Assembly (NCBI GenBank): GCA_049642705.1
Contig: JBARPB010000068.1
Span: forward strand, 1 to 49,992
Length of the DNA: 49,992 nucleotides
Source of the DNA: Candidatus Omnitrophota bacterium
Lineage (GTDB): Bacteria; Omnitrophota; Gorgyraeia; JABMRN01; RBG-13-46-9
Reading direction: 5' to 3'
Shown: in pieces, positions 1-49,992 of the stretch
How the letters are laid out: each line of letters opens with the position of its first letter
Numbering within the stretch: the first letter of the stretch is position 1
Notes under the pieces: generated by a model
Seen by the model: only the letters and a program-made list of their open reading frames with translations
Database searches by the model: none
What the model was told of the DNA's origin: nothing
Made by a program: the position numbers and the translations under genes

Positions 1-1330
1 TACCAGGCGTTGAACTGGGATATTCTTTCTTCACTGATTAATTCCCCTCTAACTTTCATGCCTTTTCTCGGCCTTAATATGAATTGCTCGATAACGCCGA
101 AGAAATATCCGAGGGTGCCGAGCAAAACAGCGCCGCCTATGATGGCATTGAAGAACATGGCAAAATACCACGGCAGGCGCAGGAGCTTTCCAAAAACAGG
201 CAAAAAGACTCCCGTCGCCCCGTCTCCACCCGGCATTATGCTGGACATAATCGGAGTCAGGGACGATATGCCGGCAAGCGTGAGATAGACACCTACGATC
301 ATAAAGGCCGCTCCCCCGGCAATCGCATACCACTTTGTCCTCCCTGCCTTTAGAAATTCCGGAGGATTTAATTTGGTTTTATCTTTTTCTCCTTTAGGCG
401 CACCCATGAGCCAGGCAGCACCCGGGCCGAATATGAACGCGGCAACCAGAATTGTGGCTGCTCTAAGTACAAGGTCAACCGGTACAAAATTCGTTAATTG
501 TGAGGCCAATAATGGAGGCATAATCAGAACGGCTGCAATAATGACAGATTCTATTATCGGCCAGAGATAAACTGAACGCCATAGTTTTCTTTTTGCTTTA
601 TAATCCTTTGTTTCTCTGCGTTCTTTTATTGTATCCCGGAATTTACGATATGCGGGTAATATGCCTAATACCGCTGCCGCAATAATGCTTGTCACCATTA
701 CAGCTTTGGGCGTAAGGAAAAGCATTCCAGCTATGGGAGCTCCTGATATCGCCATAAAAACAGTGGAAAGGCCTATCGCGAGGGACCACCTGAACTTAAC
801 AATATAGTCAAACAAAGGCGGATTCGCGCTTGTTTCGAGAAATGACGGCCACGTGCCGGCCGATTTCTGCCCCTTGGCGTGAGATTTTACTTCTTCTTTT
901 GTCCCTTTGAAACCGTGCCACAATTGTACAGGTTTTAAAACGAGCTTCATCAAATAAACTGTCGTAGAGGAAACAAGTTCAAAAACGCCTATTGGTATAT
1001 CGTGTATTATGAACGATGCGAGTACGTTGAACGGCTTGGCAGTCCTACCAGTACCAAACGGTGTAAGGGGTGGTTCGACAATTCCGAATATGTAATTAGT
1101 AAGAGGGCCTGTAAACTTGGGGTGAATCAGGAGAATCATTATAACTAAAAATATGATTTCTCCGACAAATGGAAACGCAATTTCGAAAACGCCGGGTCTT
1201 AGCATCGCGTAGAAAGTAAATATAAGCTGTATTGCCCATATTGGCTCGGAGAACATGCCCCGCGTAACGAGGCTTTCCGAATATTCCCCTCTTAAAGGAA
1301 GCTTGGGCTTGACCGATTGGTCAATAAGTG
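1..1330 (-). other. Polytopic membrane region following the GT2 domain (continues beyond the window)
   Basis: Translation gives successive hydrophobic stretches, for example IWAIQLIFTFYAML, FVGEIIFLVIMILLI, LAIGLSTVFMAISGAPIAGMLFL, IIESVIIAAVLIMPPLL, YAIAGGAAFMIVGVYLTLAGI and FNAIIGGAVLLGTLGYFFGVI (the last verified at 3-182). Confidence 0.5.
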
Positions 1331-4300
1331 TAATGGTTGTCTCTAAGATTTCTTTTTGTGGCCTTAAGCGGAATTCGAGTTCCTCGGCGAATGACGCAAA
1401 TTCCTTTCTTCTCCGGCGGCTTAGGGTTCTTAATTTCTTGCCGCGGACTTCGTCGCGGAGGAACGTATAAACATTTACGTATGGACCCCTCATCTTTTCA
1501 GCACACTCACCTCTTATACTTTCAGAAGCATCGTCTTCAGAATATTCTCTGTAGATACGGATGGAATCATTGCATGCCTTTAATGCTTTATTGTAATCGG
1601 TTTCCGCTACGCCCAGGCTAAGTATAGCACTCTTATTATTAACTAGAAAATCCTGCAGGCCTTGCAGCGTATTTCCCTCTTCTTCCGCTGTTTTTATTAG
1701 CTGTTCTGCGTATTTTTTCTGCCACTTGAGGAACTTATTGCGTTTTCCGTGCAGGTAAATGAAATTGCGTATGTCAAACGTGGGCAGCCACTTCGTTTCC
1801 TCTCTTTCCAGCTCTGACATATAGCTGGTAGGCGTTGCTTCATATATTATTGCTTTCGGAACATATCCGACCCTTCCGAAAATCCCATGGTAGGCGTCCT
1901 CGCTCTGGAGGTATTTCCTGTCGAGCTTGTACATGCTCTGGAATTGATTACCCGCAACTTCCACATGATAATATGGTTTTACCCTGAAGAAATATTTACC
2001 GAAGGACCTAACGCCTCCTTCCGCCAAAGTAGCGGCTGTCTGCGAGAAATTACCCAGAGCATTATTTGGGGTATGTTTCATTACGTAAGCGTATAAACTC
2101 TGCGGCGCATTATAAAATTGTATCCGCGGCTGCCAGACCATATAGTCGTCGTTCATGGTATTAATCATTCTGAGAACTGTATCGGATGTTGCGAAGTTAT
2201 CGCTGTCTAGAATTGAGCCGTTGGCAAGCAACGGTTTTCCGTCATCGGAAGTTTCGCCTCTTAATCTGCGGAGGTTTTTGAGCCCTTCGGCTGTCGCTAT
2301 TATACCGTATTTGCCATCCCCTTCCCCTACGTGAGGAATGCCGTCATTTCCGGTAGTTACATTACCGGGAACCAGATCTTGCGTTTTGACGCCGAATATA
2401 AAGTCTTTTGTTACGGGGTCGTTTTCTTCATTCTCCCGATTTAACCATCTGAATACCTTGTAGAAGTTATGCGGTTTGGCAACTCCTTTCATGCAGAATA
2501 CATAGAACCGGTCCTTCACGTCGGGCCTGTTTGCAAGGTCCGGATTTTCGTAAACCAGTTCTTTTAAAATATCGTAGTACTGTTTGTAGAGCGCCTCTGA
2601 ATTGCCCACCGCCTGCAGAATAAGTACGCTGACTACATTTTCGGAATTTATGTCTTTTAATACCTGGACATTTTTATTAATAACTCCTCTTAATTGGTCG
2701 TTGTTTATCGGCCGGAGCGGATTTATCATCACGAAACTTTTATCATCGCTTATTTTCGAAATTTCTATCGGGGATTTAAGGTCGGGTACCATGTTGAGTA
2801 TATTACCCACAATCCATACGATAAACTTAAGAAGGTAGATATCGATGATTATTGTGACGAGGTATATAAACGTAGCTGACCAGATAGGCAGCACAAAGTA
2901 GCTAGCGGCGGTGATTGCGTTGAAGTTCACGATGCTTATTGCAAGGGTCGTAAGAAGCGAGGTGCAGAAAATAAGAACTAATTTAAAGGGCAGGTGCTGC
3001 CTTAGAATTATATCCTTCTCTTTTTCGTCCCTGAATTCCTTCAAATCGGCCCCTTTGGGCTTTGTAAGGCCCCTCCAGGGCGGGGATTTGTTCCACTTGT
3101 ATAGCTTGTGAACTGCGATTGCAAACGTGACCACGGCGGAAATTACTATCGATATAAGCAATGTCGGGTTAGAGAGTATGTATAGAATAGCCGGATAAAA
3201 TAGATAACCTGCCCCTGCCACGCTAAGGCCTGCAATTATAGCTGTAATCATTTTCCGCTTTGTTGTTACTTCTGCTTGTTTATCACTAACAGTATCGCGC
3301 ATTTTTAATAAAGATTCCGTTGTGGGCTTGCCTGTTCCTGCTTTATCGCTGCTTTTGGGTTCATGTTTTGTGGTCAATTTTTTTCTGGAAAGCACTCCAT
3401 AAATAATTCCATATATGAATATCAATGATAAAATTGCTCCGGCTAATAATAAGGTAGAGAGCTTAGGGTTATTCCTTAAGTATTCATAAGCCCATGTTCT
3501 TTTTTTCTCAAGCCATGACCACGATTCCTGCCAGACTTCTTTATCCACCGCTTCGGTAAGCAACTCTTCTTGTGCTATCTTGTGCATAACGTTTATAGGT
3601 CTTGATAGATTCTCTTCCAGGAATTTTTTGTCATAATTAAAAATATCTTCGTCCGCAAGCCCTATATTCTCATCGGCAAAAGTATTTTGCGAATCTAAAT
3701 AGACCATTATATCCCTGAGGTTCATATGGGTAAGTAAATCAAAGGTGAGCCGCGGCGCCGCGGTTCTGTCGGAGAATTTGTCTTTCTTTTCATTGTCGCT
3801 TATTGCTTTTTGGCGCAGCGCGTCCATTTCCAGCGTCCTATCGACCAGCATCTTTATAACAACGGGGTTAATCTTCCTTTTGACCATTTGTTTTTTTATC
3901 TCTTCTTTTTTCAAAAGGATAGATGGGTCCTTCAATCTCGGAAGTTCTCTAGTCAAAACTTCTCCTATTGCGGCTTCATCCGGTTTTTCCTCTTTCGGAA
4001 GTTTTGCGACGCCCAATGAAAACCAGTTGTCGGTTGTATAAGCGATTTTAGCAAGCATCTTCTGGTCTACGGGGATTCCAAGGCGCTCCATTTCTTCTTT
4101 GACTTTCTTAATAGCGGCTATCCAGTTTTCCAGGTCTTTCTGCTCTAAGCCGTTGGCGAAAGCGTTGTTTGCCATAAGCTGCTTTTGGTCTTCGGTGATT
4201 TCCAGGCCGATTCCCTCTTCCTTGCCGAGCGCCCTGTTTAAATATTCCTTTAGTTTAAATATACTTCCCAAGTTTCGCATTTCCTGCTCAAGAATAGCTT

Positions 4301-7300
4301 TGAGGCTCAAATCATCTATTTTTTCCATCTTTGCTTCCAGATTTTTCTTTCTTCCCGGCGGTAAGTTTTCTTCGTTTACCGCTATTATCAATTCCATCTT
4401 AAGCCGGGTTTTTATCTCATCTAAAATCTGCTTTTCGTATCGTGAGCCAATAAAATCTACCTTATCGGAAACTAGTCTCGCTAAGCCGGACGCAAATAAG
4501 CGCTGCTGTTTGGAAAGCTCTCTTCCGTTGTTATAAACTTCGGCGTAAAGCCTGATGACCATTTCGGGAATCGTAACAAATTTATAGATTACTTCGTCTT
4601 CGCTATACCCTACGGTGAGCATTTTATCGTCTATATAGAAGCTTATTTCACCGTCCGTCAATTCTACCCCTGCGTTTTCTTCCGCTTTTCTCCTCAAAGA
4701 TTCTATAAGGCGCATTCGCTCTTCTTTACCGGTCACCGCGTCCTGCAGCATCATGCGAAGCTTCCTTGCTCTTCTTGCTCTTTCCGTGGCTATTTTTTCT
4801 TTATATTTTTCTAAAACCTCATTATATATAATTCCTTCCGACATGCGGTCTTCACATTCCCACTTTCTCTGTTGTACGCCTGCGATTTTTTCAACAAGCA
4901 AAGGCCACATAAAGCCCTCCAAGGTTTTTAGCTGCGGCCTTATAAGGGCGATAATATCGCCTTCTCTTCTCTTGCCCTCCTTATAAATAAGGGGTGCCGC
5001 TAAGTCCGTAAAACCCTTGGATACGTTCCTTACGCTCTCTACAAGCTCACCCTTAGCTCTTGTTATCTTGCCTTCGGTCATGCCCTGGTTTTTACCGCGC
5101 TCTCCGGAGAGTATTTGTTCCAACTTCTCGAAATGCTTTACCCTATTTTCGAGTTCATCTTTTGTCATGGTCTCTCCGAACACTACTATCCATTTCTGCA
5201 GGAGATAACGGTAATCCTCGAATCTTCCTAAAGGCATAAAGGCCCATTCCGAATGGTATGTAGTTTCGAATCTTCTTATCTCTCTTCTCAGTTCATGAAT
5301 ATCAAGTTTTTTCTCATCGCCTCCCCTTACCTGGTATAATATACTGTAGATATTGCACCAGTTGAAAAATCTGCCTTGCGTCCTGTACTCCTGCTCTTGA
5401 ACAACTTCTATATCATCAAAGGTATTGTCCATATAATCTTTTGGGAGGCCCCGGCTATGCATGCGAACTACAAAACCCCAGACCTCCGCTTCGGTAGCTT
5501 CTGGAATAAGGTCAGCTACATCTTTATTATATTTTCCCCTTATTTTATCGCGCAACTTGCGTTCCCGTTCCCTGAAGTAAGCCGCACAGTCTATAAATTT
5601 GCCGATTGTTTCTTTTGTATAACCACGTGTTCTCTCAAGGAGCGTCATTAAATTACCTACTTTGCCGGCTTCAAGCCTTTGCGGTATTGTTATGATTCCT
5701 GTCTCCAATATCTCTTTAATCTTTTTTTCTGCGTCTTTTAATTTAAGATCCTGTATGCAACGAATGAGTACGGACTTAACTTCGGGAGTTACAATAATCG
5801 TCCGTTTATTGTAAGCCATGTACACTGCCTGGATGTAAATACGTTTTTCTATATCCTGAACCAGCTCTTCACGGGTTTCAATTCCCTTGCTAACTATGTA
5901 ATCTGTACCGAAATATACGGCTTCCTGGTCATTTACAGCTTCCAGGCCGAGTTCTTCTATGTAATCTCTTATTTCTTCTTTCTTTTCTTTACTAACATCC
6001 CATTTCCAGTCTTTTTTGTCTTTCAGTTCTTCAAGCAATCTTATGGACGCATCTTCTTTTGCTTTTTGCGCGGCATCTATATTCTTAAACACTTCCTCAA
6101 CAGCCAAATCCGGCTTATCGTATTCCTTCCTTAGCCTGTCGACAAGCCTTGCGTAATAGGGTAGCGCCTCCATTTCCAGCTGTTTCCAGTTTGTTTCGGC
6201 TGCCTTATATATATCGGCCATCGTGATAAAGAATTTTTCCATTTCCTCCGGCGAAAACTTGCCATCGACCATAAACTGCGGCTCGTTATCGATGGTGAAC
6301 TCTATGGTGAACTCTGCCCATGCCTTTAAGGTTCCGAGGTACCTACCCTGATTCATTCCGTAGTAATCAAACTCTAAGGGTTCGGCGCCTTCTTCAATTG
6401 CCCTGGCAAGCGCTTCGTCCTGCATGGCAAGTATGTCTTTAAGATTCTCGCCTATATCAGATTCGTAAAGATATCTTGCCAAACCAAGGCCTTTGGGATC
6501 TAACATCCTATATATTGACCCTATAGTCATGCCTTCGTTGAGAGATAACCTGGCGGGTATTACTGCGCGGTTCTTTATATTAACGGCATCGGCAAGTCCT
6601 GTGTCTTCGCTATAAACCTCCGGTACTGCCTGCCTTAATTTTACGAGATTATCCAACACAAAGTCCCTGTCGCAGGTAAGGAATAATGCGTGCGGCGAGA
6701 GGTGCGCCTGCCATTGGGTGTACTGTGGGCCAAACATTAATGCGGCCCTGTTCTGTGCTAAAAGAGATGTGCCTTTTTCTCCGCTGTATTTTCTCTTCGT
6801 CTCGCATGCGGAGTGGAAAGCCGCTATACTCAAGCCGAGTATATTACGCCTCTTGCCCTGGTCTTCTATAACGCGCCTGTAGTTATTAATCAGCATTTTC
6901 ATTACAGGGTTAGTATCTTCTGCTACAAGCATATTAGGCAAGCACAACTGGAATGCGCCTCCGTCCCATGTTGCGAGCACCGGTATTTCTTCGCCTGTTA
7001 ACAATTTGTAATTCCTTATCTCGATATCAGAGCTTAAGATGGAGTCCCTATCTATTTTGCCCATAGCCGCAAGGATTTGGCTATTTAGCCTTGATTCGCT
7101 TCCCAGTGTGCCGGCCGGATGCCATGTTTCTTTTGAATCTCCGAGCATACCCCCTACGAGAAGCTTTCTATCTCTATCGTAAAGTATGGTATAGTCTTGT
7201 GATTTTATTATCGAATCAGCCACTCTTTTTATTTCTTTCCCTTCTTCTGTGGCATCGTTTTTGTAGGCTTCTGATACTATTTTGAGGCAGGCTGTCAAGT

Positions 7301-27552: not shown

Positions 27553-27600
27553 TTTAGGTTACCTCGCTTCTTAATACTTTGTTTAACTCTAAAAGATGTT

Positions 27601-27659: not shown

Positions 27660-27674
27660 TTAACTTACACTACA

Positions 27675-29922: not shown

Positions 29923-30171
29923 TCATTTCGACTTTAGTTTTTTTGTTATATATCTTTCGAGATTATTAAGCGTATCAAAGTTTTCCGGCATGATTTCCGG
30001 TACTTCTATCTTAATGCCGTATTTTTCCTGGATGAAGCTGGCAAGTTCGATAACACCTATGGAATCAATAATGCCTTTTTCAAGAAACGAGTCGCCGTCG
30101 TCCAAACGGGCGGAGTCGCTTTTGAGGTAATTAGAGATGATAAATCTCCTTAGCTCTTCTTTTATATGCAT
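29923..30171 (-). CDS. Acyl/peptidyl carrier protein (DltC-like ACP)
   Basis: 82 aa. LEKGIIDSIGVIELASFIQEKYGI contains the D-S-[IL] phosphopantetheine-attachment motif. The gene ends 1 nt before the ligase start codon. Confidence 0.8.
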   Translation of the reverse strand: MHIKEELRRFIISNYLKSDSARLDDGDSFLEKGIIDSIGVIELASFIQEKYGIKIEVPEIMPENFDTLNNLERYITKKLKSK

Positions 30172-33591: not shown

Positions 33592-33960
33592 TTATCTATC
33601 TTTTTTAAGCAGGTATTCGACTGTTTTGGCGAGCTTTTTTCTTTGTGTCTCAACGATGCTAATGAACTCAATGCCTATATTGAACCGGCGGAAACCCCAG
33701 GCAGAGCATATAGTAACGATTCTTACAACCCGGCCTTTTATGCCAATAGGTTCGCCTTCAGTGGGAAGAAAAAGTGAAAGATCCAGCATCTCCCCCAGGT
33801 TGGGGAGGTTGCTCGTCCTGATGAGCGCTCCGTGCCGGCTTATGTTGATGACAGGGACGGGTGTCCTTATATTCTTATCGAATATCCTGATTCTTATGCC
33901 GTCGTCAACGCGCGGGGACCTTCGTTTTTCCGTGCCTGTGTATTCCTGCATGGCTATCAC
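33592..33960 (-). CDS. PilZ-domain protein (candidate c-di-GMP receptor)
   Basis: RRSPR (the RxxxR motif) and NISRHG (the [DN]xSxxG motif) sit at canonical spacing. It is a paralogue of 34174-34476. The likelier start is Met4 (ATG at 33951), which has AGGTGA 6 nt upstream and aligns with the paralogue N-terminus MAQYTGTEKRRSPRV. Confidence 0.8.
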   Translation of the reverse strand: MIAMQEYTGTEKRRSPRVDDGIRIRIFDKNIRTPVPVINISRHGALIRTSNLPNLGEMLDLSLFLPTEGEPIGIKGRVVRIVTICSAWGFRRFNIGIEFISIVETQRKKLAKTVEYLLKKDR

Positions 33961-34173: not shown

Positions 34174-34476
34174 CTAAACTACGTTCAGAAATTCAATGCC
34201 AACGTTAAACTTGCAGAAACCCCAGGCGGAGCATGTTGTAACTGTTCTGATAACGCGCCCTTTTATGTCAATTGGTCTTGTCTCGCTTGGAAGATATACT
34301 GAAATATTTACTACTTCCTCGGGTTTAATAAAAGAGCGGCTTCTCAAAAGCGCCCCGTGGCGGCTTATGTTAAGGACAGAACCGATCTTTCGGATATGTT
34401 TTCCGGTTATTCTGGCCTTTGTGCCGTTGGGCACGCGTGGTGACCTCCGCTTTTCTGTGCCAGTGTACTGTGCCAT
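34174..34476 (-). CDS. PilZ-domain protein (candidate c-di-GMP receptor)
   Basis: RRSPR and NISRHG motifs. AAAAGGAGG lies 6 nt upstream of the ATG. The start is 16 nt downstream of the giant-gene stop codon (34495-34493). Confidence 0.8.
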   Translation of the reverse strand: MAQYTGTEKRRSPRVPNGTKARITGKHIRKIGSVLNISRHGALLRSRSFIKPEEVVNISVYLPSETRPIDIKGRVIRTVTTCSAWGFCKFNVGIEFLNVV

Positions 34477-40400: not shown

Positions 40401-43400
40401 TTGTGCTCTTTGACGGGTTTTATTTCAAGCTCTGCCAGATGCGAAGTAATCGACTTTTCTGCCTGCGATATAGATTCCCTTACGCTCTCTTCGCTTAATG
40501 ATTCCGCCTTAGACTCCCTTGCTATCGCCAGTTTATTCGCTACCTTATCCGTAAAGTTTTCCATTACATCCTTGAAGGATGCAATCATCTTTCCGGCGTA
40601 TTTTCTAAATCTAACTTCTCTGCGTAGCTTTCTTGAGTTTGCCAGGAACTCAACCCACATATCATCGATAGACTGGGTTACGATATTCATGAGATCGGCC
40701 TGCGAAACGTTCTTAATCACGGATTGCAGGATAACCTGCGCTAATCCGTTATTATCAAGGCTCCTTATAGAATCTTCTGTAATGCCTTCGAGCGAAATGC
40801 TGAATCTTGACTTAATTGCCCCTAACATGTCCTTAAAGTTAAATTCTGCTTTTTGATCTCTGTATTTCTCTACGAGTTTCAATGTGGCTGTTTCTAAGAT
40901 GCTATCGATTGTAATCTCACGGGATTTTCCGCCAAGTATCGCGTTTCTCAATTCGTGGTATGACTTCTGCATCCTGTATTCAAATGTGTTAAACCTGGCG
41001 GCGGAAGCCCTCATCCTGAGTTCGGCTTTATCTATATTATCCTGGGCTTTCCTGGTTGACTTTCTTATGTATCTCGTTGCCTTTCTTATGTAATTTCTTT
41101 GGGAATCCGTTAACTCACGTCCTTCTTCAAGGGCCTGCTTTATTTCTTTAAGGGCCGGTTTTATTTTTAATATCCTCTCATACCTGCTTTTAATGAGTAT
41201 GTTTATGAGTATGTTTCCACCGCGATATATACCGTTTTTGTAAGCTAAACCTCTCTCGAGCATGGCAAGATCCGCTCCTTCGAGCGACATAACTGACCAC
41301 GCTTCGCCAGGGTTATCCTGACGCGCCACCCTGCCGTCTGCCTGCCTGTCAATTCTTCGTGATTTATTAACTTCTCTTATTAGCTGCAATCCGAATACAT
41401 AGGTAGTAAATACCATATTCATAAGTTCGGGTGCTTCTATTCCTTGTCTCTTAAAGAAATCTCTTACCTCTTTCGCCTTTTCTTTCATCGCTTTGGGATT
41501 TCTGTTTTCATTAAGCCTGTCAATTAATTTGCCCAGTTCCTGCTTTTGCGCCGGGGTTAGCACACGGGATGCCTCTTCCAGTATCTGACTCCTGCCGGGC
41601 AGTTTAATATCGGTGGCGCGGCCTGCTATATTAGTCGCGATGGTCACCATGCCGGGTGTACCGGCTGTTTCAACTATCGCTTCTTCGTTCCATTCTAACG
41701 ATGCGTCAAGAAGCTGCATGTGCTCGGCATCCACTATGCCTTCGCTTATTAATATCCTGTGGAACGCTTTCGCGTCATCCATATTTCTGAACGTAACAAG
41801 TATGGGTGCACCCGGTCTCGTATTCCTTATTTCATATATCTTATTCTTTATATATTCAACCTTTTCTCTGCCCGTCAGAACGATTTCGGTAAGATTGTCT
41901 TTTCTCAAGCTTTCAGAGTGAGGAGGCATCCTGACCACTTCTCTATTAAAGAGTTTCCTTAGTTCTTTCTCCGCTTCCATGACGGTTCCGCTGCAGCCGC
42001 TGAAGTGTTTGTATTCGTTTACTAAGAGGTCTCTTATGCTCATCTTGGCTATGGTCTTGTATTCTCCGTGTATATCGAGTCCTTCTTTTGCCTCTACTGC
42101 CTGCGCAAGGCCGTCTTCCCAGCGTTGTCCCTCTAAATCGCGGCCAGTTGCCTCGCTTACGATTATAAGTTTGCGCTTTCCGTCTTTTTCCGTTTCGATT
42201 CTGTACTGTATATCTTCGTGGTAAAGAAGGTGTGCTTCAAGGGCTCTTTGTATATGATGTTCTTCCAGATTTGTCATATTTTTCATTACGCCCTCATGCC
42301 TAATCGCCTGTATCAATCTACCGACAGCCTTTTTACCTTCTTCCTTAAGCGTAAGAGTTCTTGTGGTCCTGTTTAAACTATAATATTCGTTAGTTTCTAA
42401 TTTTTGCGTTATGCCGCCTACATCTTTTAATGTAACTTTTACCTCCCCGCCTTCAGGACGGATTCGCCTTGCTATCTTATCGGCAATTATATATACGGCG
42501 GCCTCGCCGGCGCTGAGTGGTTCGCCTGCGCCTTCTGAAAGAATACATTCGGATAGCGCCTGGTCCAACGTTATGTTATCTATTTCGTCTACGTTAGCGT
42601 AATTGAGTTCTCTCGTAATATATTTTTCTTCTTCCCGATGTGTTCTTAAGTCGTGTAGTTTATCAAACCTAACTGTTGTGTTCGCGACATAAACTACATC
42701 CGCACTATATGCCTTCCTCTTAGCTTCCAGTATTTTCTCTCCCCTGTTTTCCGCGTCTTCGGATATACCCATATCTCTTGTTACAAAGCTTGGCTCTATG
42801 CCTAACATATCAAAGATTGGTTTTGTCTCATTGAAATCCCGCTCGGCAAGGAAGTCCGCCGTAACAAGCTGGTGCGCACTTTTACCGGTTAAGGCATGCA
42901 GATAGAGCGCGAGCACGCTCGTTAAGGTCTTACCTTCGCCTGTTCCCATCTGAATGATTATCTCCTCAGCAAGTAGTTTTCCCGCGTATGACTGTTCTTT
43001 GTGCGGCGCGAATCCATACCCGTCTGCTAATAGGGTTGCCAGTATGAAGGCGCTTGTTGCGTCTAATACCACCGCTTTCCTCTGCATGCGGCCTCTAAGG
43101 TTACTGGTTATCTGTTCAGGTATCTTACTCAGGGCCTCTCTTATAGCTTTGCCTCTTTCGGACTTAAGGCTTATGCCCTGGTTATTTAGCGCTTTTTCAA
43201 AGGTTACTTTTTCTTTTTGTCCTTCTTTGGAAAGAACTCTTTCGATAGCACTTATCGCAACGCCGGCATCTTCCGGAAGTAGGTTTTGCCTTATATGAGT
43301 AAAGAGGTTGCTGTTGGCAGCGGCGTGGTTTTTCTTGAGGGCTTTCCTCACCGCTTGCTCTCTGCCAAACCATCTTACTTTTATCCTGTTTATCTGTCCT

Positions 43401-46400
43401 ATTACGAAGCTTCTTATCCTCTGCACGGTTGACATATCTGACTTGAGTAGTTTGAAGGTCATCTCGTCTACTGTAGTGGCTCTTCCGCTCTTTGTTTGCA
43501 ACCTGTTCAGTTTGTCGCAGAGCCTGGCGTTTGTAATGAGATTCGCATACTGTGTTCCCAGTTTGCGCAGGAAAGCCTCCCCTACCGCATGGTCTAATGA
43601 ACCGTTTTCAATAAGCTTTTCCGCGATGGGTATTATTCTCTCCAGCATCTTGGCTCTTTCAGCGAATACTGCCCTTGCCTGTCTTAACGCCTTGCCCTTA
43701 TCTTCTGTTCTTCTGAATGTCTGTATGCCAAGTGTATTCAAGCTATTTACAATATACTGAGCGTTATTCGGAGTAGAAGCGAGTTTTTCTACATTGGCCA
43801 TTTTCGCCGCTACCATTTTGGCTATTTCATTTACGGATATTTCTTTTTGTGCATTATTTAATCGTATTCCGAACGCTCTAAATAAAGTCCTTAACCGTTT
43901 GGTAATCTTTAGGCTGCCGTTTTCTATTCTCACCATGCCTTTCGGATCTTTTACTTTTGCTTCAAGCGCCATTCTGACGGCTTTAGCATTCATGGGCGTA
44001 ATGCCGTAAATCGCGAATACCGCCAGTTGCGTATAACTCATGTATGGCAGGCTCTCTCCGAGTGACTGAATCGCGGATAATGTTTCAGGTGTTAAATTTC
44101 TTAATAGTATATTTGGCCTGCCTTGTAAGAACTCCTGCATGAGCGAATAATCGGAACTTAGCGGCATCGCAAGCTCGTTCATTAATTTCGTTACTTCTGA
44201 AGAATCCATTTTTGCAAGTTTGTCGAGCCTGTAATGGCGCATAATAAGGCCTGCTTCACCGTACTTTTCCTTGTTTGCGGTGCTTACAATTATGGAATTC
44301 TTCAGCATGTTATTTATGTTGATCTTGTTCAGATTGTTGAATAGAGAACCCGATACGAAACCTGCGCCTAAAAGGTGCTCGCCGATTGTATTTGTGTCCT
44401 TTTCTGTCAAATTCTTGAAGTCATGAGCGGTCGGATTGATGCCCAATTGCGCTAAAGCCGGCAGTATTGCTTCAATGTTGCCCCGTGCATTCGCAAACAG
44501 GGCGCCCATTACGATTCTCTTCATATGGAACCCTATATCCTGCTGTCTCAAGGTTCCCAGGTTCTGCGAAAATGCCTGTGCTATGTCGGTCTTTGCATCA
44601 TGGGCAAGAGCCGGGTCGATAGTTTGCAAAATAGCAATACCGTTTACTATCGCGTCTATCGCTTCCTGTTTCCAACCCAGGCCTTGATAGGTTGGCATTT
44701 TTAACCGCGCCATTTCAATATTTAGCGCGCCTTGTCTCTCCAATAATTCTCCTTTGATTTCTGTTAATTTAGATTCTATCCCATTTATAGCAACAGCGAT
44801 AGCATCCCATGGCGCAGGACCGCTTTGCTCAATTTGAGCTATTAAACTGTCTATGTGCTCTAAGGTTCTCCTTAGGGTTAAATTATATCGGAAGCGGGCT
44901 TCTGTCTGGTATTGTGATTCTGCGGCGCCTTTCGGTGCATAAGTTAGCTCTTCTATTCGGTTCTTTATGCGTTCTCGCAGCTGCGGAAGGTTGGCTTGTT
45001 CTTGCTTATCTCTTAATTGGTTTTCCAGTATTGATATTTCCTGTTTAAGTTGCACGATTTCATTTTGAATTTCTGCAATCCTTGGAGGCGCGCGGTCGCC
45101 GAGGTTTAGCATATTCATGGTACCTTTTGAATCAACCGCATGGTCTATTACTGCGCTGATTACAACTCTTATAAATTCTCCTCCGGAAGTAGCAAGGTTA
45201 TTACCTATTTCGGTGATAATCAATCGCTTGGCTTGTTCGTTGGAATTCGAAAGAATTGCCAATAGGTGCCTCTCTCCCTTAGATAAACCGAGCGAAGTAA
45301 GGACATCTAAAACCGAATCGGTTATAACTCCGCCTGAGAACGCAATTACAACGCCCCTCGCTGTCTGTTTCGCTTTTGTGCTTATATCTCCGGGGGTATT
45401 TAAACCTATTTGATTAAACAGCATTTTCCCTGTTTTTACCAAGGCGTCATTATTGCTTTCGAATAGTTTGTTTAACGCGGCCGCATCGGCTTCATAAATA
45501 CCGAATGTAGTTAAGTTTTCTGCGCTGCCGTTCATAAGTTGTGTGGACAAAGCGAGCTCTTCTACGGCAGGTTTTAATGTAGCTTCCGAAATTCTTCCCG
45601 TCATTGCCAGATATCTCAGATTTGATAAGAGATGCCCGTCGTTTATCTGGACTTGAGACAACCCCATGTTCTCGAGGGCTTTTATATCCCAGTTATTGAC
45701 TACATTTATAAGCTTCGCATTTTGTTTTGTAAAGTTCTTGATAGACTGCGTAACTTCTAACAACCCGACTTGTTCAAGGTTTGATTTTATGCTGGAATTG
45801 GTTATATCGGCATTTGCTAATTGGTTCGTTAGGATATTCACTTCCTGCTGAGTGGCCGTGCCTTCCTGCACCCTGCCTACCGTACCTATGTCAATACCAG
45901 CATCCTGCAGGGCCCATCTTTGGTTCGTGTTGGAAAGGTTTATTTTGCTTGCAGCTTTTTCGACAGTTCCCCTTGCAATGTTCTTGCTCGTATTGCTGAA
46001 GCTCGATCCAAAACTAACATCGCCGAATTCAACGAGGTATTCGGCGGTTGCGGGAGATACGCCGAATGCCTGCAAAATGGCACTTAGTATCGGCTCTTTA
46101 ATTCCTTCTTCCCAGATGCCCTTAATTGACCCTAATTTGAAGAACCGTTTTGCGAACCTTCCGACCCAAGCCGGGAATTTGACTATAACGTTTTTGAACC
46201 CGGCCCCTATCCTCACAGCGGCAAATCCTACAGGATTTCCAATCATTTTCCCTATCCCCAATGTTTCCACGATTTTGCCGCCTATTTTGCCTAAAAATTT
46301 CCCTGCAGCCAGAGCAAATATTTGGATAAACGGCCCTAATGCGAAGAACACTATTACAAACATCGGGTTTCTTACGGTTGTGTTCATCATGCCGTCCAGT

Positions 46401-49400
46401 ACGCTGCCTTTTTCAACAACAAACTTATTCGGCACGACCTGGCTGACATTCCATCCAAAGCTCGCCAGGGTCATCCATATAGTTCTTCCGAGCCCTTCCG
46501 GTCTTTGCGCCAGTGTATTCATTAGATCCGTAGGATTATCAGCGCCAAACCACAGCATGAGAACAGGAGTTATCGCCGCTCTGCCCGTGATCCACAGCGA
46601 GGCTCCAAACCATCCTATTTGAATCGTGGTTCTAACCAGCGCCAGCGTAGCGCCTTTTATGGTCAGGTATTGTGCCACCGCGCTGTGGCCCGCAAATATC
46701 GCCTTAAGAGCCGAACCTCTAAAGAAGAGGTGGGCTTTGCTAACAAAGTTATAAATTGCGTTGGCCAACTTTGCCTTCAAGCCTGCTCCGGAAATAAGCT
46801 CTTTCGCTATTCCAGTAAGCGCCGCATTAATTTTACCCGCAATCGCGGCCACGCCTTTTCCGAGGACACAAGCGGCGATAACCATACCTACTATTTCTAT
46901 AGCGTCTCCCCAGGTATAACCTCTCCAGAACTCCGCTCCGATATAGGTGCTTTTCTCGTGGACTCTGAACGCATCACCTATGCCTCCTATTCCGAGAGAA
47001 AGGCCTCTTACAAGAGCGGTAAATCCATTTGCTATTTCAAAAACAACTCTGCCAAAATCTGATTTTTCTGCCCACACCGCCATCGTATCCATTAACGCAT
47101 GTCCGGCTGTGTATTGATATCCAAAAGCAGTGTTTGGCTTATCGATTACTACGTTTCCTTCTTTATCTATATGGCCGGATCCGTTCGAACCTGCATATTG
47201 AACAAGAGATACAACAACTCCGACTATCGCGCCAACTACTGCACCTATTGCAAATCCTATCAAAGTACCGATAAAAGGAGTGATGCATGTTCCTATGATG
47301 CCCCCGAGCACTGCTAATGTTCCGGCAAATGTTCCGACATTCGCCAACACGCCATCGGTAGTCATGCCTCTTGCAACCAGCTTCTTATCCAAGTCCTTAA
47401 ACGCGCCGAACGCCGAAGCAATAACTCCGCCAATTACTCCTACAGCCAATCCGATAGCAGCACCTACAGCTGCTCCTACCAACGCTCCAACTCCGAAGAA
47501 CCAGACTCCGATAGCAGCTCCGATTACGGCGCCCGTTGCGCCGCATGTAGCAGTTCCTACCGCGGCATTTCTGTCCATGAATCCAAGGTCAAATGCGCCT
47601 CCTGCGATAAGCCCGACTATCGCGCCGACTATTGCGCCTATTCCCGTACCGATAACCGGTATAACGCTTCCTATAGCAGCGCCTATTGCTGCTCCGCCAA
47701 GAACCCCCGTTGCTGTGCCTTTGATTTTGATTACGCTTGTATCTGCAAGAATGCCAAGTAATAATCCGATGCCGGCGCCGATTATAGCTCCGATTGCCGT
47801 CCCAATAACCGGGAAAACGCTACCTATTAAAGCACCAAGCGCCGCACCACCCGCTACACCGGTCAAGCTGCCTTTTATTTTACCAAAGATACCAAGATCC
47901 ACTGATACACCTGCTATAAGACCGACTATTGCGCCTACGAGTGCGCCTATTGCCGTGCCTACGCCTGGTATAATACTTCCTACTAAAGCACCCAATGCTG
48001 CTCCACCTGCTACGCCTCCTATGCTGCCTTTTATTTTACCGAGGGCCCCTGTGTCGTAGAGAATTCCTCCTGTCAGTCCCACAACTGCTCCTATAGCAGC
48101 GCCTATCGCTGCTCCTACTAAAGCCCCAACGCCAAAGAACCATACTCCGATAGCGGCTCCTATTGCTGCACCTGCTGCTGCACCGCCTGCCACACCGACT
48201 CCGCTACCTACAATTCCCATGGACTTTAGGTCTTTTACTGCATCTCCTGCAACGCCTATTACGGCGTCCAATATCTCAGAGGCAACGAAGGCAAAGAGAA
48301 TGCCCACTATTGGCGCGTACTCTTTTACAAAGTTCCACGCCCTGCCTGCGGCATCCTTAATATTGTCCCACTGCCAGATTATAAGTTCGGAGATGCCCAG
48401 GGTTACTATACCGAGGCATACCCTTCCTATTGTTGAAGCGTTTTCCTTTACAAAGCCCCACGCCCTGCCTGCCATGTCTTTTATATTATCCCATTGCCAT
48501 CTGATAAGTTCTGAGATACCCAGGGTTACTATACCGAGGCATACCCTTCCTATCGTCGAGGCGTTTTCCTTTACAAAGCCCCACGCCCTGCCTGCCATGT
48601 CTTTTATGTTATCCCACTGCCAGATTATAAGTTCGGAGATGCCCAGGGTTACTATACCGAGGTAGACTCTTCCTATTGTTGAAGAGTTTTCCTTTACAAA
48701 GTTCCACGCGATACCAAAACCTTCTGCCATGGCGGCTGTAAAGCTCTGGTGTGTTCTGGCGTACTCAGCGGCAAAAGATTTCGCCTGTTGATGGCTAAAA
48801 CCAAAAAGCCTGCTCATAGCATAAGCCGTGCCATAATTTGTACCGTACCATACCGCGCTTGCTCCGGCTTTTATGTTATCCCATTGCCATATTATAAGTT
48901 CGGAAATACCCAGGGTTGTTATAGCAAGGTAGATTCTGCCCACTATTGGCGCGTATTCTTTTACAAAGTTCCATGCCCTGCCTGCGGCGTCTTTTATGTT
49001 ATCCCATTGCCATATTATAAGCTCAGAGATGCCCAGGGTTGCTATGCCTACGTAAACTCTGCCCACTGTTTTTAATATCTCTTTTTCTGAATCTTGCTTA
49101 CCTAACTCTACGGCAGCATTCCAAGCTGTTTCTTCGTCAAAAGAAACAACACCTGCTTTTCCTCCCCACCACTTTAAGCCATACTGAAGAGCGGCGCGAA
49201 GACCTATTTTCTTAAGCTGCCCCCAGGTTGTACTGTCAGGGTGATTCTTTGCAAGTTGCGTCATTTCATTCAATCCTAAGGCTGCGTCAGGAATTCCCTG
49301 GACACCTGTAACTTTGATAATTTTGTGATCGAGTCCTGTTTTTTCTGCAAACTTGAAAATTTCGCCATTTATCGCAGCTCCTTCTACACCCACAAGCTGC

Positions 49401-49992
49401 TTAAGGCTCGTTGGGTCAAGGCTTAAATGGCCGCCTGGAATATGAACTATCGGCTCGCCTTTTTCGTCTAATCTGAAAGATGAAACATTTGCTGTTTCGC
49501 CGTCTTTAGTCCTTAGTTGACAATCTATAAGAAAAACGTTTTTCGCATCAACACCCGTTTGCTCAGATACCGCTTTGAGATGCGCAGCCATTTCTTCGAT
49601 ATCTGCGTAAGTGCCATTTGCAGCGAACGCTTGTTGTTCTTCTTCCACTCCATCACTAGTGTAGGTCTTTGTCACTACCTTAAAAACTCCTCCTTCGAAA
49701 TAGGTGTAATCTATGCGGGTTACTACGGTTTTTCCGGTTAATCTGTTGAATCCCGCACCTATTACGAAGATGACCTTTCCGCTTAGGTCTTGGACGGCGA
49801 ATGTGAGGGACTCTAATGCCTTGCCCATACCTATGAATGCAAGGCCTTCTGTGAACTTGGCGAATGCCGCTATGCCTCCTGCGCCCGAGAAGTCGTGTTT
49901 TATTGCTTCTGCTCTTATCTGGGTTATCTGCGCATCTGTTAGATTTAATGCGCCTTGTGCGCTGTCGTATATGTTTTCTCTTCCTATTAAGG
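34493..49992 (-). CDS. Giant membrane-associated protein with embedded SecA-like motor (>=5,166 codons; probably 5'-partial)
   Basis: The track lists 34493-49828 (5,111 aa) from the first ATG. I translated 49829-49992 in the same frame and it stays open and protein-like (...[60 protein letters not shown]). No convincing SD precedes ATG 49828, so the true start is probably beyond the right edge. The stop is TAA. Confidence 0.85.
   Translation of the reverse strand, partial: [5165 protein letters not shown]
36293..36307 (-). other. HEXXH motif 2 (HELAH, aa 4508-4512) immediately after two hydrophobic helices
   Basis: [54 protein letters not shown]. This suggests a membrane-proximal zincin-like site. 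The family is unassigned. Confidence 0.4.
36875..37033 (-). repeat. Internal 159-nt duplication, copy B (encodes [35 protein letters not shown]...[10 protein letters not shown])
   Basis: See copy A. Confidence 0.8.
37571..37729 (-). repeat. Internal 159-nt duplication, copy A (encodes [35 protein letters not shown]...[10 protein letters not shown])
   Basis: Collinear with 36875-37033, with about 25 mismatches in 159 nt by my hand alignment. The copies are 696 nt (232 codons) apart and in frame. Confidence 0.8.
38033..38047 (-). other. HEXXH zinc-metallopeptidase motif 1 (HEVGH, aa 3928-3932)
   Basis: [15 protein letters not shown] read from the track protein and located on the DNA (atgcccaacttcatg). 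The surrounding family is unassigned. Confidence 0.45.
38412..38620 (-). other. Winged-helix-like module (first of three ...NYY[KRH][LM] units)
   Basis: [28 protein letters not shown]...[31 protein letters not shown] resembles MarR/ArsR-type wHTH (recognition helix, then a G.L wing). Related endings recur: [20 protein letters not shown] and [22 protein letters not shown]. By eye only. Confidence 0.35.
39725..39915 (-). other. Cluster of about 3 transmembrane helices C-terminal to the SecA-like region
   Basis: [64 protein letters not shown]. Confidence 0.6.
40520..43010 (-). other. Nearly full-length SecA-like translocase ATPase region (NBD1, PPXD, NBD2, helical scaffold), aa ~2274-3100 of the giant protein
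   Basis: Motif-for-motif match to E. coli SecA as I recall it:
- [41 protein letters not shown] versus [41 protein letters not shown] (Walker A at 42926-42946)
- [15 protein letters not shown] versus YALVDEVDSILIDEA
- [40 protein letters not shown]...FSGCSGTV versus [40 protein letters not shown]...LAGMTGTA
- [16 protein letters not shown] versus VTIATNMAGRGTDIVL
- [32 protein letters not shown] versus [31 protein letters not shown]
- [26 protein letters not shown] versus [26 protein letters not shown]. Confidence 0.85.
47215..48215 (-). other. Array of glycine-zipper (GxxxG/AxxxG) transmembrane hairpin repeats, about 5-6 units of ~52 aa
   Basis: Example: [52 protein letters not shown], repeated three times. 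Two units containing [17 protein letters not shown][IV]GAAIG flank these, and a further [20 protein letters not shown] unit follows. The composition matches glycine-zipper 2TM-type domains. Confidence 0.7.
48303..49068 (-). repeat. Five in-frame copies of a 41-aa (123-nt) hydrophobic repeat (2 + ~55-aa spacer + 3)
   Basis: The protein unit is GRAW[NG]FVKE[YN]A..[IV]GR[VI].LGI.[8 protein letters not shown][IR]WQWDNIKD.A. By my hand alignment, adjacent DNA units 48418-48540 and 48541-48663 differ at about 11 of 123 positions. Confidence 0.85.

Follow-up and report, generated by a model that had tools for sequence, protein, structure and literature searches.

Introduction

Two groups of described systems come closest to the locus discussed here. 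The first comprises the giant-gene loci of Omnitrophota, whose giant proteins were reported to contain embedded SecA DEAD and PPXD domains but to lack the SecA wing/scaffold domain, to be followed by downstream pilZ genes, and to have type II secretion-like genes in their vicinity, with a 30-kaa class of giants being stressed (West-Roberts et al. 2023, bioRxiv 10.1101/2023.11.21.568195). The second comprises the MBOAT–SGNH acylation systems, which act on general envelope polymers and in which the C-terminal [F/Y]xYxxF sequence of the MBOAT protein constitutes the acyl-shuttle hexapeptide; a carrier-protein donor and an MBOAT-fused shuttle motif belong to separate kinds of these systems (Anderson et al. 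2025, PMC12148441). The export, maturation and use of the Omnitrophota giants are a current puzzle.

In this study, we analysed a stretch of 49,992 bp (“the window”) which constitutes the whole of contig JBARPB010000068.1 from a metagenome-assembled genome (MAG) of Candidatus Omnitrophota (GCA_049642705.1). The window is a typical Omnitrophota giant-gene island, in which a six-gene acylation cassette is situated between two giant genes, termed G2 and G1, and this placement immediately behind a giant gene is kept in five lineages. A first-pass annotation of the sequence had regarded the composition of the locus as without known counterpart. This holds for the linkage of the cassette to giants, which is new relative to the Omnitrophota giant-gene papers (bioRxiv 10.1101/2023.11.21.568195 and bioRxiv 10.64898/2026.06.07.730766); the SecA-containing giant with downstream pilZ genes, on the other hand, had already been published. 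The term “MBOAT” is absent from the main text of both papers, as are “acyl”, “AMP-binding” and “phosphopantetheine” from that of West-Roberts et al. 2023 (bioRxiv 10.1101/2023.11.21.568195).

Source and Organization of the Locus

The MAG is labelled Candidatus Omnitrophota, and the closest relatives of G2, of orf1021 and G1, and of the cassette are all from Omnitrophota, which agrees with the lineage that had been guessed from the sequence; marker genes are not present on the contig. Upstream of G2, the contig continues for 164 nt; its other end is inside G1. All 11 credible genes are located on the minus strand, to which all gene and domain coordinates given below refer, and the seven longest plus-strand open reading frames (ORFs; 189–370 aa) are antisense within the giants and without Pfam match; the co-directionality proposed for the locus is, thus, confirmed, and most of the initial description of the locus stands. 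Neither a tRNA nor an Rfam family was found in searches of the window, including c-di-GMP riboswitches in the leaders.

Short or overlapping junctions, as described initially, are found inside the cassette, where they range from −41 to +15 nt. Sizeable intergenic gaps had been counted as two, of 418 nt and 273 nt; both are real, but a third one of 213 nt separates the two pilZ genes. A chimeric origin of the contig was considered and rejected. An independent Logan contig covers the end of G2, both pilZ genes, the MBOAT gene and the following genes through the ligase gene at 100% identity, which makes a chimera unlikely; in addition, the composition is uniform along the contig and all of its parts have Omnitrophota relatives. 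In exact look-ups, neither the orf1021 nor the TPM protein sequence was on record; the junction between the cassette and orf1021 is, therefore, without a second assembly.

The Upstream Giant G2 and the PilZ Proteins

G2 (34493–49828) encodes a giant of 5,111 aa in one uninterrupted ORF, with about 20 hydrophobic segments in total according to a hydropathy scan and no transmembrane segment predicted within the first ~460 aa. About 18 hydrophobic segments are contained in a glycine-zipper transmembrane array (46304–48433; aa ~466–1175), which matches Pfam Gly-zipper_YMGG (9e-18) across several stretches and in which GxxxG repeats are visible. Further downstream, a complete SecA ATPase module (40589–43174; aa ~2219–3080) comprises the Pfam domains SecA_DEAD (2.5e-38), SecA_PP_bind (1.2e-17), P-loop_SecA (5e-23) and SecA_SW (2.6e-6), all above their cut-offs, together with a Walker A motif (MGTGEGKT) and DEID; the top SecA match in the PDB is at 2.5e-62. 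Given these four domains and the array, the attribution of a SecA motor and a membrane array to one of the giants is well founded. The NCBIfam SecA scores are far below the equivalog cut-offs, and the SecA of G2 is a domain within a 5,111-aa protein and not a canonical SecA. Its nearest relatives are three partial proteins from Omnitrophota MAGs (55–58% identity over the SecA region).

The case for the peptidase motifs, which had also been attributed to G2, is weakened: what is present are two bare HExxH strings found by regular expression match only, HEVGH (38033–38047; aa 3928–3932) and, right after a hydrophobic stretch, HELAH (36293–36307; aa 4508–4512), with matches to neither a peptidase family nor a PDB entry. 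Internal BLAST repeats were found in neither giant, and similarity was detected neither between G1 and G2 nor between the N-terminus of G2 and orf1021.

The gene of PilZa (34174–34476), a single-domain PilZ protein (Pfam PilZ, 6.5e-10), starts 16 nt past the G2 stop and is followed by that of its tandem paralogue PilZb (33592–33960; 2.2e-14; 57% identical to PilZa). Both proteins retain the RxxxR and NxSxxG motifs (as RRSPR and NISRHG), by which c-di-GMP binding is predicted, in line with the two PilZ proteins recognized at the outset.

The Acylation Cassette

The six-gene cassette encodes, in this order, an MBOAT protein, a DUF1574/SGNH protein, a WbuX-like PP-loop protein, a carrier protein, an adenylating AMP-ligase, and a TPM protein.

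The DltB-like MBOAT acyltransferase (32125–33561) matches Pfam MBOAT (5.5e-14) and the DltB structure 6bug (1.2e-28), with the histidines of the RWH and WHG motifs being conserved relative to DltB; its score of 159 bits is below the DltB equivalog cut-off of 375. Its C-terminus ends in [FY]xYxxF, which reads YYYFQF or YFYFQF in the window (32128–32145, YYYFQF) and in five homologues. Among the minus-strand ORFs between 27 and 35 kb, this is the only one ending in an FxYxxF-type motif, and a separate DltX microprotein was not found among them.

The DUF1574/SGNH protein (31170–32165) is a membrane-anchored, DltD-like protein with an N-terminal hydrophobic segment, in which the residues of the G-D-S and DxxH motifs (G69, S71, D300 and H303) do not vary among 59 homologues. 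Pfam assigns it to DUF1574 and not to DltD; its AF2 model (pLDDT 93), however, shows an SGNH fold for which DltD structures are the best fold matches (E 3e-5, search probability 1.0, TM 0.36–0.44). The WbuX-like PP-loop protein (30162–31154) is related to N-acetyl sugar amidotransferases (WbuX/NASAT), matching NCBIfam TIGR03573 (9.7e-43, below cut-off) and PDB 8wex (8e-6), and contains an SGGKDS motif as well as N-terminal CxxC pairs.

The acyl/peptidyl carrier protein of 82 aa (29926–30171) matches Pfam PP-binding (1.3e-7), with the Asp-Ser pair (IDSIG) inside the matched region, and reaches 24–29 bits against DltC models with cut-offs of 52–68. The AMP-ligase (28440–29921) is an ANL-family adenylating enzyme (Pfam AMP-binding, 3e-74). 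In NCBIfam, it comes closest to the models of fatty-acid CoA ligases and of an exosortase-associated ligase, all below cut-offs, and its nearest PDB entries are A domains of non-ribosomal peptide synthetases (NRPS) and acyl-CoA synthetases; there is no DltA among the 25 NCBIfam and 60 PDB matches listed. The TPM protein (27826–28443; Pfam TPM_phosphatase, 1.3e-26) has hydrophobic stretches at both ends, which probably represent a signal peptide and a C-terminal anchor. Every cassette locus of sufficient length contains the TPM gene, and likewise, the carrier protein and the ligase are kept inside the cassette.

The Head Module, orf1021 and the Downstream Giant G1

Downstream of the cassette, orf1021 (24487–27552; 1,021 aa) precedes G1 (3–24068), which encodes a giant of more than 8,022 aa whose C-terminus is lost at the contig end. 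The reading frame of G1 extends without a stop from 24137 up to the window edge, with the ATG at 24068 being the preferred start. The orf1021 protein, a short paralogue encoded in tandem with the G1 head, is 65% identical to the N-terminus of G1 over about 680 aa. The common module of roughly 620–700 aa is found at roughly 25693–27552 in orf1021 and, with the transmembrane anchor included, at 21918–24068 (aa 1–~717) in G1.

While orf1021 itself has 57 homologues, nearly all from Omnitrophota, a profile search with the head-module family yields 9,826 cluster representatives, and the module begins at residue 1–75 in all but one of the 150 proteins listed. It has no Pfam family match; against solved structures, a sequence-profile search returned coiled-coil noise only, and a fold search returned nothing at E ≤ 0.001. 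The weak top matches of the fold search include erythromycin-esterase-like entries (search probability ≤0.35); an EreA/ChaN/TIKI-like core is, at this stage, a lead only. The AF2 model of orf1021 has a pLDDT of 87. Members of the family are also found away from the cassette, for example in the loci L085, where the gene is located beside an RND efflux operon, and L086 to L090; in L088, a PilZ protein at 45–49% identity follows the head-module protein. With thousands of members and no Pfam family, the head module offers a simple key to find and classify such large proteins.

G1 is a giant with an N-terminal hydrophobic anchor and a conserved head module, followed by a GH130-like and a β-1,2-glucanase-like domain. 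The GH130-like domain (20589–21596; aa ~825–1160) matches Pfam Glyco_hydro_130 (1e-8), the β-1,2-mannoside phosphorylases 9fj8 and 7fip in the PDB, and the NCBIfam β-1,2-mannobiose phosphorylase model (1.4e-13, below its cut-off), so that the glycosidase-like character ascribed to G1 is borne out. The (α/α)6 β-1,2-glucanase-like domain (6441–7580; aa ~5497–5876) matches PDB 8xuj (1.9e-13) and 8wy1 (1.2e-12) and, at 7e-12, residues 1000–1104 of the cyclic β-1,2-glucan synthase 8rf9; part of the region matched by the glucan synthase gives a weak Pfam DUF3131 match (0.0025). These residues of Cgs lie in what we take to be its (α/α)6 cyclization, glucanase-like domain. Since the match falls on a glucanase-like domain, and no glycosyltransferase family was detected by Pfam, NCBIfam and PDB searches in G1 as present (its C-terminus is missing), the designation of G1 as a glycan synthase is not supported; its catalytic domains are of glycan-cleaving types.

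TolC-like repeats had been noted as well; they come down to one weak OEP/TolC-like stretch (14229–14585; aa ~3162–3280), whose Pfam score of 22.6 bits (1e-4) is borderline to the cut-off of 22 and for which neither a second repeat nor a PDB match was found. The hydropathy scan gives about 20 hydrophobic segments for G1 in total, including C-proximal transmembrane clusters (84–3449; aa ~6874–7090 and 7630–7995).

Promoter-Like Sites, Hairpins and Probable Transcription Units

Promoter-like sequences had been described for the 418-nt and the 273-nt gap, which is correct for the latter. The 273-nt leader of orf1021 (27553–27825) contains a near-consensus TTGACA-16-TATACT site in the promoter scan (27702–27675) as well as a hairpin with a U-run (27627–27613), and it is conserved upstream of a 71% identical orf1021 homologue in CP070780.1, whose neighbours differ; the 192 nt after the TPM gene in locus L091 do not align with it. 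In the 418-nt gap, the scan found no near-consensus site. Overall, promoter-like sites are not more frequent between 23.9 and 34.6 kb than in shuffled sequences (17 versus 20.8).

The 418-nt spacer between orf1021 and G1 (24069–24486) is strongly structured, with a minimum free energy z-score of −5.95. Two long hairpins are located directly after the orf1021 stop and recur with compensating changes in L086 and L087, as judged from an alignment by eye. On the basis of the conserved upstream elements of orf1021 and G1 and the strong hairpins between them, we infer that the genes of the window are read as several transcription units rather than as a single operon.

Position of the Cassette in Other Lineages

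The cassette is located directly downstream of a giant of 4.3–11.8 kaa in five out of five lineages, i.e., the window and four others, at MBOAT identities of 51–76% between the five. According to the tables of called genes, an 11,821-aa giant is followed by the cassette in L091, and a 10,473-aa giant, one AAA_14 gene and then the cassette are found on the ERZ27297570 contig. In L094, a giant of at least 4,298 aa, the cassette and three other genes are followed by a 3,915-aa giant starting with the head module, and in L096, an 8,272-aa giant, the cassette and a 1,230-aa open frame with the head precede a giant of 15,114 aa. A head-module protein after the cassette is, thus, found in the window and in two of the four other lineages (L094 and L096).

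As a control, ten Omnitrophota loci were inspected that have an MBOAT paralogue but no cassette; in none of them does the upstream ORF exceed 700 aa. Complete Omnitrophota genomes have a median of two proteins of at least 10 kaa, and with giants being that few per genome, chance adjacency is unlikely. A scan of GTDB genomes with the MBOAT mostly retrieved paralogues without the cassette, and a metagenome scan with the DUF1574 alignment yielded three contigs of 2.2–2.8 kb each, too short for long-range context.

Locus L094, a contig of 59.9 kb, and L002 agree in the identity values of all their cassette genes; because of this match, the upstream ORF of L002, which is cut at the contig start, would correspond to the C-terminus of the L094 giant. 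L094 matches a record labelled Planctomycetia, with identities that agree for each gene of the cassette.

The surroundings of the cassette and parts of its content differ between the lineages. The final ~2,800 aa of the upstream giants were compared for the five contexts; in this part, the giants of the other lineages are similar neither to G2 or G1 nor to each other, and in none of these four lineages is a pilZ gene located between the giant and the MBOAT gene. AsnB-like and AAA_14 insertions are found in some loci, and the TPM gene has moved. For the proposed co-occurrence of the giants, the PilZ pair and the cassette, this means that the cassette does follow a giant in four other lineages, so that the lack of co-occurrence named at the outset as a refutation was not observed, while the particular combination of a SecA giant, two PilZ proteins, the cassette and G1 is not conserved as a unit, given the dissimilar upstream giants and the missing PilZ in between. 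It further follows from the dissimilar giant ends that the partner of the cassette is “a giant” of no particular family, which fits an inherited neighbourhood equally well as a function. As far as the sequences tell, it is by synteny alone that cassette and giants are tied.

Interpretation of the Cassette–Giant Association

The reading that we favour, by a little more than even chances, is that, in this Omnitrophota giant-gene island, a carrier-protein-dependent MBOAT–SGNH cassette travels with the giants as an accessory, its acceptor being tied to the work of the giants. In such a relay, the ligase would activate a carboxylic acid and load it onto the carrier protein, the MBOAT would transfer the acyl group to its own C-terminal tyrosine at the outer membrane face, and the SGNH protein would hand it over to an acceptor outside the cytoplasm. 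This acceptor would most likely be a surface glycan of the cell itself, the acylation of which might, e.g., mark or protect the cell from the glycan-cleaving giants; a less likely acceptor would be a glycan or residue belonging to those parts of the giants that are exported. The PilZ proteins may couple the giants to c-di-GMP, and the genes would be read from several transcription units. What counts against this reading are the dissimilar giant ends, the tie by synteny only, the head-module proteins found away from the cassette, and the match of L094 to the Planctomycetia-labelled record.

Opposed to this is a rather unlikely explanation without any shared function, according to which the cassette performs housekeeping acylation of an envelope polymer and is found beside giants either by an inherited arrangement or because such islands collect accessories. 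It would accommodate that the giants preceding the cassette are not related in sequence between lineages, that pilZ genes are inconsistently placed, that the cassette content varies with the AsnB-like and AAA_14 insertions and the moved TPM gene, and that mobile elements are common beside giants; likewise, general envelope polymers are the substrates of MBOAT–SGNH systems elsewhere (PMC12148441). It is less easily reconciled with an adjacency that persists in all five lineages at 51–76% identity despite changing surroundings and is seen in none of the ten control loci, nor, with few giants per genome, is chance a likely cause. The initial proposal that the whole 50-kb locus is one machine synthesizing, modifying and exporting a surface polymer under c-di-GMP control appears very improbable. 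The co-direction of all genes, the tight junctions inside the cassette, the PilZ proteins with intact motifs, and the combination of a SecA motor with glycan-active domains speak in its favour. However, neither a glycosyltransferase nor a synthase was detected, the “synthase” match being a glucanase-like domain; the “building” of a polymer is, therefore, without basis. With the upstream giants unrelated in addition, the notion of one machine is only partly supported; moreover, the evidence for TolC-like repeats is borderline, the cassette does not have giants of the G2 and G1 types as conserved partners, and several transcription units are indicated.

A further possibility is that the giants themselves, or their shared head module, are acylated outside the cytoplasm and become anchored or activated in this way. 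A hydrophobic segment is located N-terminal of the SGNH domain, the TPM domain and the head module alike, which hints at a common compartment; head-module proteins come after the cassette not only in the window but also in L096 and, with three genes in between, in L094; and the nearest matches of the ligase are acyl-activating enzymes and not DltA. Against it, we know of no protein that is acylated by a bacterial MBOAT–SGNH pair, the WbuX-like and AsnB-like enzymes are suggestive of sugar chemistry, and many head-module proteins occur without the cassette. We regard protein acylation as improbable, and to the same low degree its more specific form, a carrier-protein-fed MBOAT–SGNH relay dedicated to acylating the head module or outer parts of the giants, thereby anchoring or activating them for prey attachment. 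Eukaryotic MBOATs do acylate secreted proteins, and if true, the acylation of giants would be a bacterial counterpart thereof.

A small set of enzymes travelling consistently with giants provides a concrete laboratory handle. The ligase substrate, the acyl acceptor and the MBOAT–SGNH relay are open to in vitro or heterologous work without culturing the organism.

Comparison with Known Systems

With the published giant-gene loci of Omnitrophota, the window shares very long genes with many transmembrane segments (G2 and G1), a giant with an embedded, divergent module of SecA DEAD and preprotein-binding domains (G2), glycoside-hydrolase-type domains on a giant (G1), and small pilZ genes directly downstream of a giant (G2). 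In contrast to these loci, G2 also matches the SecA wing/scaffold domain, and with 5.1 and more than 8 kaa, the giants of the window are small and below the 30-kaa class. The resemblance of G1 to the glucan synthases Cgs/NdvB is confined to the middle domain, with aa ~5497–5606 as the best stretch matching Cgs residues 1000–1104, whereas neither the GT84 synthase nor the GH94 phosphorylase domain was detected.

The cassette resembles the Dlt pathway in having an adenylating enzyme with a small carrier protein, a DltB-like MBOAT (PDB 6bug, 1.2e-28), and an SGNH protein that is anchored in the membrane and by its fold matches DltD structures best. It differs in that its ligase is not DltA-like, that the MBOAT itself carries the Tyr shuttle motif at its C-terminus in place of a DltX microprotein, that the SGNH partner belongs to the uncharacterized DUF1574 family, and that extra PP-loop and TPM genes are present; to our knowledge, Omnitrophota have not been reported to make teichoic acids. 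With PatA/PatB, AlgI/AlgJ/AlgX and WssH/WssI, in turn, it has in common the C-terminal [F/Y]xYxxF shuttle motif of the MBOAT and a separate SGNH transferase outside the cytoplasm with a Ser/Asp/His triad; but while PatA/PatB-type systems use an acyl-CoA donor and no carrier protein, the carrier protein and the ligase are conserved here. Judged by its predicted components, the cassette, thus, mixes features of Dlt with those of PatA/B, and this combination of carrier protein, ligase and MBOAT-fused Tyr motif constitutes a new cassette type which, by joining a predicted carrier-protein donor to a fused shuttle motif, may widen the view of the MBOAT–SGNH relay.

Gene Organisation and Integrity of the Locus

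The window is a whole contig (49,992 bp) from an NCBI MAG labelled Candidatus Omnitrophota (locus tags include WBC74_04020 and WBC74_04045), and both this label and its relatives bear out the lineage guessed in the first-pass annotation. As that annotation had also stated, every credible gene is encoded on the minus strand; on the plus strand, the seven longest ORFs are antisense inside both giants and have no Pfam match. In minus-strand direction, the order is a giant gene, G2 (34493–49828; 5,111 aa), two PilZ genes (PilZa, 34174–34476; PilZb, 33592–33960), a cassette of six genes, a 1,021-aa gene (orf1021, 24487–27552) and a second giant, G1 (3–24068; >8,022 aa, cut by the contig end). The cassette encodes a DltB-like MBOAT (32125–33561), a DUF1574-type SGNH protein (31170–32165), a WbuX-like PP-loop protein (30162–31154), an 82-aa carrier protein (29926–30171), an AMP-forming ligase (28440–29921) and a TPM-domain protein (27826–28443), with internal junctions of −41 to +15 nt. 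Wider gaps of 418, 273 and 213 nt are present, the last of which, between the PilZ genes, had been overlooked when only the other two were reported. Neither tRNA genes nor Rfam families were found in the window. The plus-strand AT skew is negative in all 2-kb bins but one (down to −0.32) and the GC skew in all but two, consistent with exclusively minus-strand coding.

A chimeric contig, which had been named as a possible refutation, is unlikely, since GC varies from 0.38 to 0.49 without a sharp break, an independent Logan assembly covers everything between the G2 C-terminus and the ligase at 100% identity, and Omnitrophota relatives exist for each of the three gene sets. Between cassette and orf1021, the junction is covered by a single assembly, and the same arrangement is present in the related locus L096.

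The 273-nt spacer (27553–27825, minus strand) contains TTGACA-16-TATACT, a near-consensus promoter-like site with an extended −10 element, and the orf1021 leader also forms a small hairpin with a U-run behind it. Promoter and hairpin are kept upstream of a 71% homologue in CP070780.1 (locus L085, 9840–10050) despite different neighbours (RND efflux genes), with what looks like a compensating G:C to A:U change in the stem. The 418-nt spacer (24069–24486, minus strand) is much more stably folded than its shuffled counterparts (z = −5.95) and harbours, just past the orf1021 stop, two long hairpins, one being a 19-bp perfect stem without a U-run. In an alignment judged by eye, L086 and L087 show these hairpins as well, with compensating changes, in spacers that separate tandem genes of the orf1021 type (L086 3000–3345 and 6520–6870; L087 9550–10015); they might act as terminators or might stabilise the transcript. 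Another promoter-like site was placed immediately ahead of the MBOAT gene, and such sites are no commoner in the scanned stretch than in shuffles. Several transcription units are more likely than one operon.

The Acylation Cassette

The MBOAT aligns to DltB (PDB 6bug, 1.2e-28) and keeps the histidines of the RWH and WHG motifs. It ends in YYYFQF, and five homologues likewise keep [FY]xYxxF at the very C-terminus; this hexapeptide has been described as the acyl shuttle of MBOAT–SGNH pairs and, in the carrier-protein-fed Dlt pathway, resides on the separate microprotein DltX (Anderson et al. 2025, PMC12148441). In the DUF1574 protein, which has a hydrophobic segment at its N-terminus, G69, S71, D300 and H303 (G-D-S and DxxH motifs) are invariant across 59 homologues. 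Its AlphaFold model (pLDDT 93) best matches DltD structures among PDB folds (E ~3e-5, probability 1.0, TM 0.36–0.44), followed by SGNH esterases and PatB; DUF1574 is among the SGNH families listed without known function. The PP-loop protein, which has an SGGKDS motif, is a relative of N-acetyl sugar amidotransferases. In the Dlt-like operon of the first-pass annotation, the ligase most closely resembles acyl-CoA ligases and the adenylation domains of NRPSs rather than DltA, and the shuttle motif is fused to the MBOAT. For this cassette, we infer an acyl group, a donor and an acceptor.

Cassette content varies by lineage (L096 12006–13958; the ERZ27297570 contig; L093 88–1335): two lineages have an AsnB-like glutamine amidotransferase inserted ahead of the carrier protein, in L094 the TPM gene has moved to a mid-cassette position, and in one lineage an AAA_14/DUF4143 gene stands between giant and MBOAT.

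Linkage of the Cassette to Giant Genes

A GTDB scan with the MBOAT returned mostly cassette-less paralogues and one short cassette contig, L002, while the cassette-specific SGNH protein yielded 62 homologues, all named ones being Omnitrophota. Gene context was readable in the window and in four SGNH-homologue contigs of sufficient size, and a giant lies upstream of the cassette in all five lineages, among which MBOAT identity is 51–76%. The upstream giant directly precedes the cassette in L091 (11,821 aa; the contig stops 192 nt past the TPM gene), in L094 (at least 4,298 aa; the cassette is followed by three genes and a 3,915-aa giant opening with the head module discussed below) and in L096 (8,272 aa; followed by a 1,230-aa open frame with this head and a 15,114-aa giant); on the ERZ27297570 contig, one AAA_14 gene separates a 10,473-aa giant from the cassette, and a 468-aa gene, known as a gene call only, comes after it. 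The upstream giants of the other lineages have no detectable similarity to G2, G1 or one another over the last ~2,800 aa compared, and no PilZ gene stands between giant and MBOAT in any of the four contigs. Hence, the conserved order is giant, cassette and often head-module protein, and the exact part set of the window is not conserved; the co-occurrence proposed as a check holds for cassette and giants, and fails for this particular pair of giants and the PilZ pair.

L002 and L046, the records with the best-matching MBOAT genes in the GTDB scan, are both labelled "uncultured Planctomycetia". Reading the ORF upstream of the L002 cassette as an unrelated gene was dropped: gene by gene, the L094 cassette gives identity values equal to those of L002, and the ORF is therefore taken to be the C-terminus of an L094-type giant. 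L002 holds the whole cassette, and the longer L094 carries giants and an Omnitrophota-type head module, so that mis-binning or an incorrect label seems likelier than Planctomycetota origin.

On balance, the window would probably best be explained as a giant-gene island with which an MBOAT–SGNH cassette fed by a carrier protein travels, this cassette acylating an acceptor outside the cytoplasm that would be connected with the function of the giants. The main alternative, that the cassette sits beside giants through an inherited neighbourhood without any shared function, would accommodate the dissimilarity of the upstream giants, but we regard it as less likely, given that adjacency is maintained in five of five lineages at 51–76% MBOAT identity, compared with an upstream ORF of >700 aa in none of ten Omnitrophota control loci with a cassette-less MBOAT paralogue, and that giants are few per genome (proteins of at least 10 kaa: median two per complete genome; 2026 preprint 10.64898/2026.06.07.730766). 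Moreover, the genes around the cassette change between lineages while the adjacency stays. Of the single integrated polymer-building system originally envisaged, the link between cassette and giants remains; nothing points to polymer synthesis, G1 and G2 are not partners that the cassette keeps across lineages, and several transcription units are likelier. Overall, the earlier observation was largely right, with corrections, and its interpretation is partly supported.

Domains of the Giant Proteins

No transmembrane segment is predicted in G2 from aa 1 to ~460, followed by a glycine-zipper transmembrane array at aa ~466–1175. A complete SecA module spans aa ~2219–3080 (window 40589–43174, minus strand), with DEAD, preprotein-binding, second P-loop and wing/scaffold domains all above Pfam cut-offs (wing/scaffold 28.1 bits vs. 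26.7), a best SecA match in the PDB of 2.5e-62, and intact Walker A and DExD motifs. SecA motor and membrane array are accordingly as first described, while the peptidase motifs amount to two HExxH strings (HEVGH and HELAH; 36293–38047, minus strand) that no family match supports. The strings share the region of aa ~3760–4520 with weak winged-helix matches (Penicillinase_R 0.085, PadR 0.014; none significant), a constellation that may loosely recall BlaR1/BlaI-type sensor–protease pairs.

G1 starts with a transmembrane anchor and the conserved head module, after which a GH130-like domain (aa ~825–1160) agrees with the glycosidase-like content noted previously. The presumed glycan synthase is not supported: the domain at aa ~5497–5876 matches cyclic β-1,2-glucan synthase at residues 1000–1104 only, which we take to be the (α/α)6 cyclisation, glucanase-like domain of that enzyme and not its glycosyltransferase, and no glycosyltransferase was detected anywhere in the sequenced G1. 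A weak DUF3131 match covers part of this region. The TolC-like repeats reduce to one borderline OEP match; two transmembrane clusters lie near the cut end.

A Head Module Common to orf1021 and G1

Residues 5–669 of orf1021 and 36–717 of G1 are 65% identical (~680 residues), and this N-terminal module of some 620–700 aa (25693–27552 and 21918–24068, respectively, minus strand) is also present in L085–L090, L094 and L096. Homologues of orf1021 are nearly all from Omnitrophota and occur in tandem (three copies in L086), after other large genes (L087 and L088, with PilZ next in L088) or before one (L090). The closest, in the 1.43-Mb Omnitrophota record CP070780.1, lies after an OEP-MFP-RND-RND efflux operon and before recA; none of the 62 SGNH homologues is listed on a contig of such size. 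Genes called in L085 (CP070780.1 108535–131530) include a 1,075-aa product containing enolase, which hints at gene fusions.

A profile search with the module retrieved 9,826 cluster representatives at E ≤0.001 (6,840 at ≤1e-30); with a single exception, the match starts at residue 1–75 in the 150 listed, which are proteins of 506–7,834 aa. The confident AlphaFold model (pLDDT 87, pTM 0.83) displays β-strands at both ends and a long all-helical stretch between them, with conserved QDAH, EG, R and GGFH positions. The module matches no Pfam family, no PDB sequence and no fold significantly; erythromycin-esterase-like entries are among the top, weak fold matches.

Comparison with Known Systems

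According to West-Roberts et al. (bioRxiv 10.1101/2023.11.21.568195), the majority of giant genes in Omnitrophota code for numerous transmembrane regions together with divergent SecA DEAD and preprotein-binding domains, and most have at least one small pilZ gene directly behind them, the pattern also seen in G2 and its two PilZ genes. The combination of SecA-in-giant and pilZ is already published. A SecA-bearing architecture cluster was recovered in the 2026 preprint. G2 differs from the giants of West-Roberts et al., whose embedded SecA modules were reported without a wing/scaffold domain, in its additional wing/scaffold match.

By its gene content, the cassette is a hybrid, because it joins the donor logic of the Dlt pathway (ligase and carrier protein) to a shuttle motif fused to the MBOAT, as in PatA-type systems, and has two additional genes. 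The term "MBOAT" is absent from the main texts of both preprints, as are "acyl", "AMP-binding" and "phosphopantetheine" from that of West-Roberts et al., and a full-text literature search for Omnitrophota and MBOAT returned nothing related. Relative to the literature compared, both this form of the cassette and its association with giants are new.
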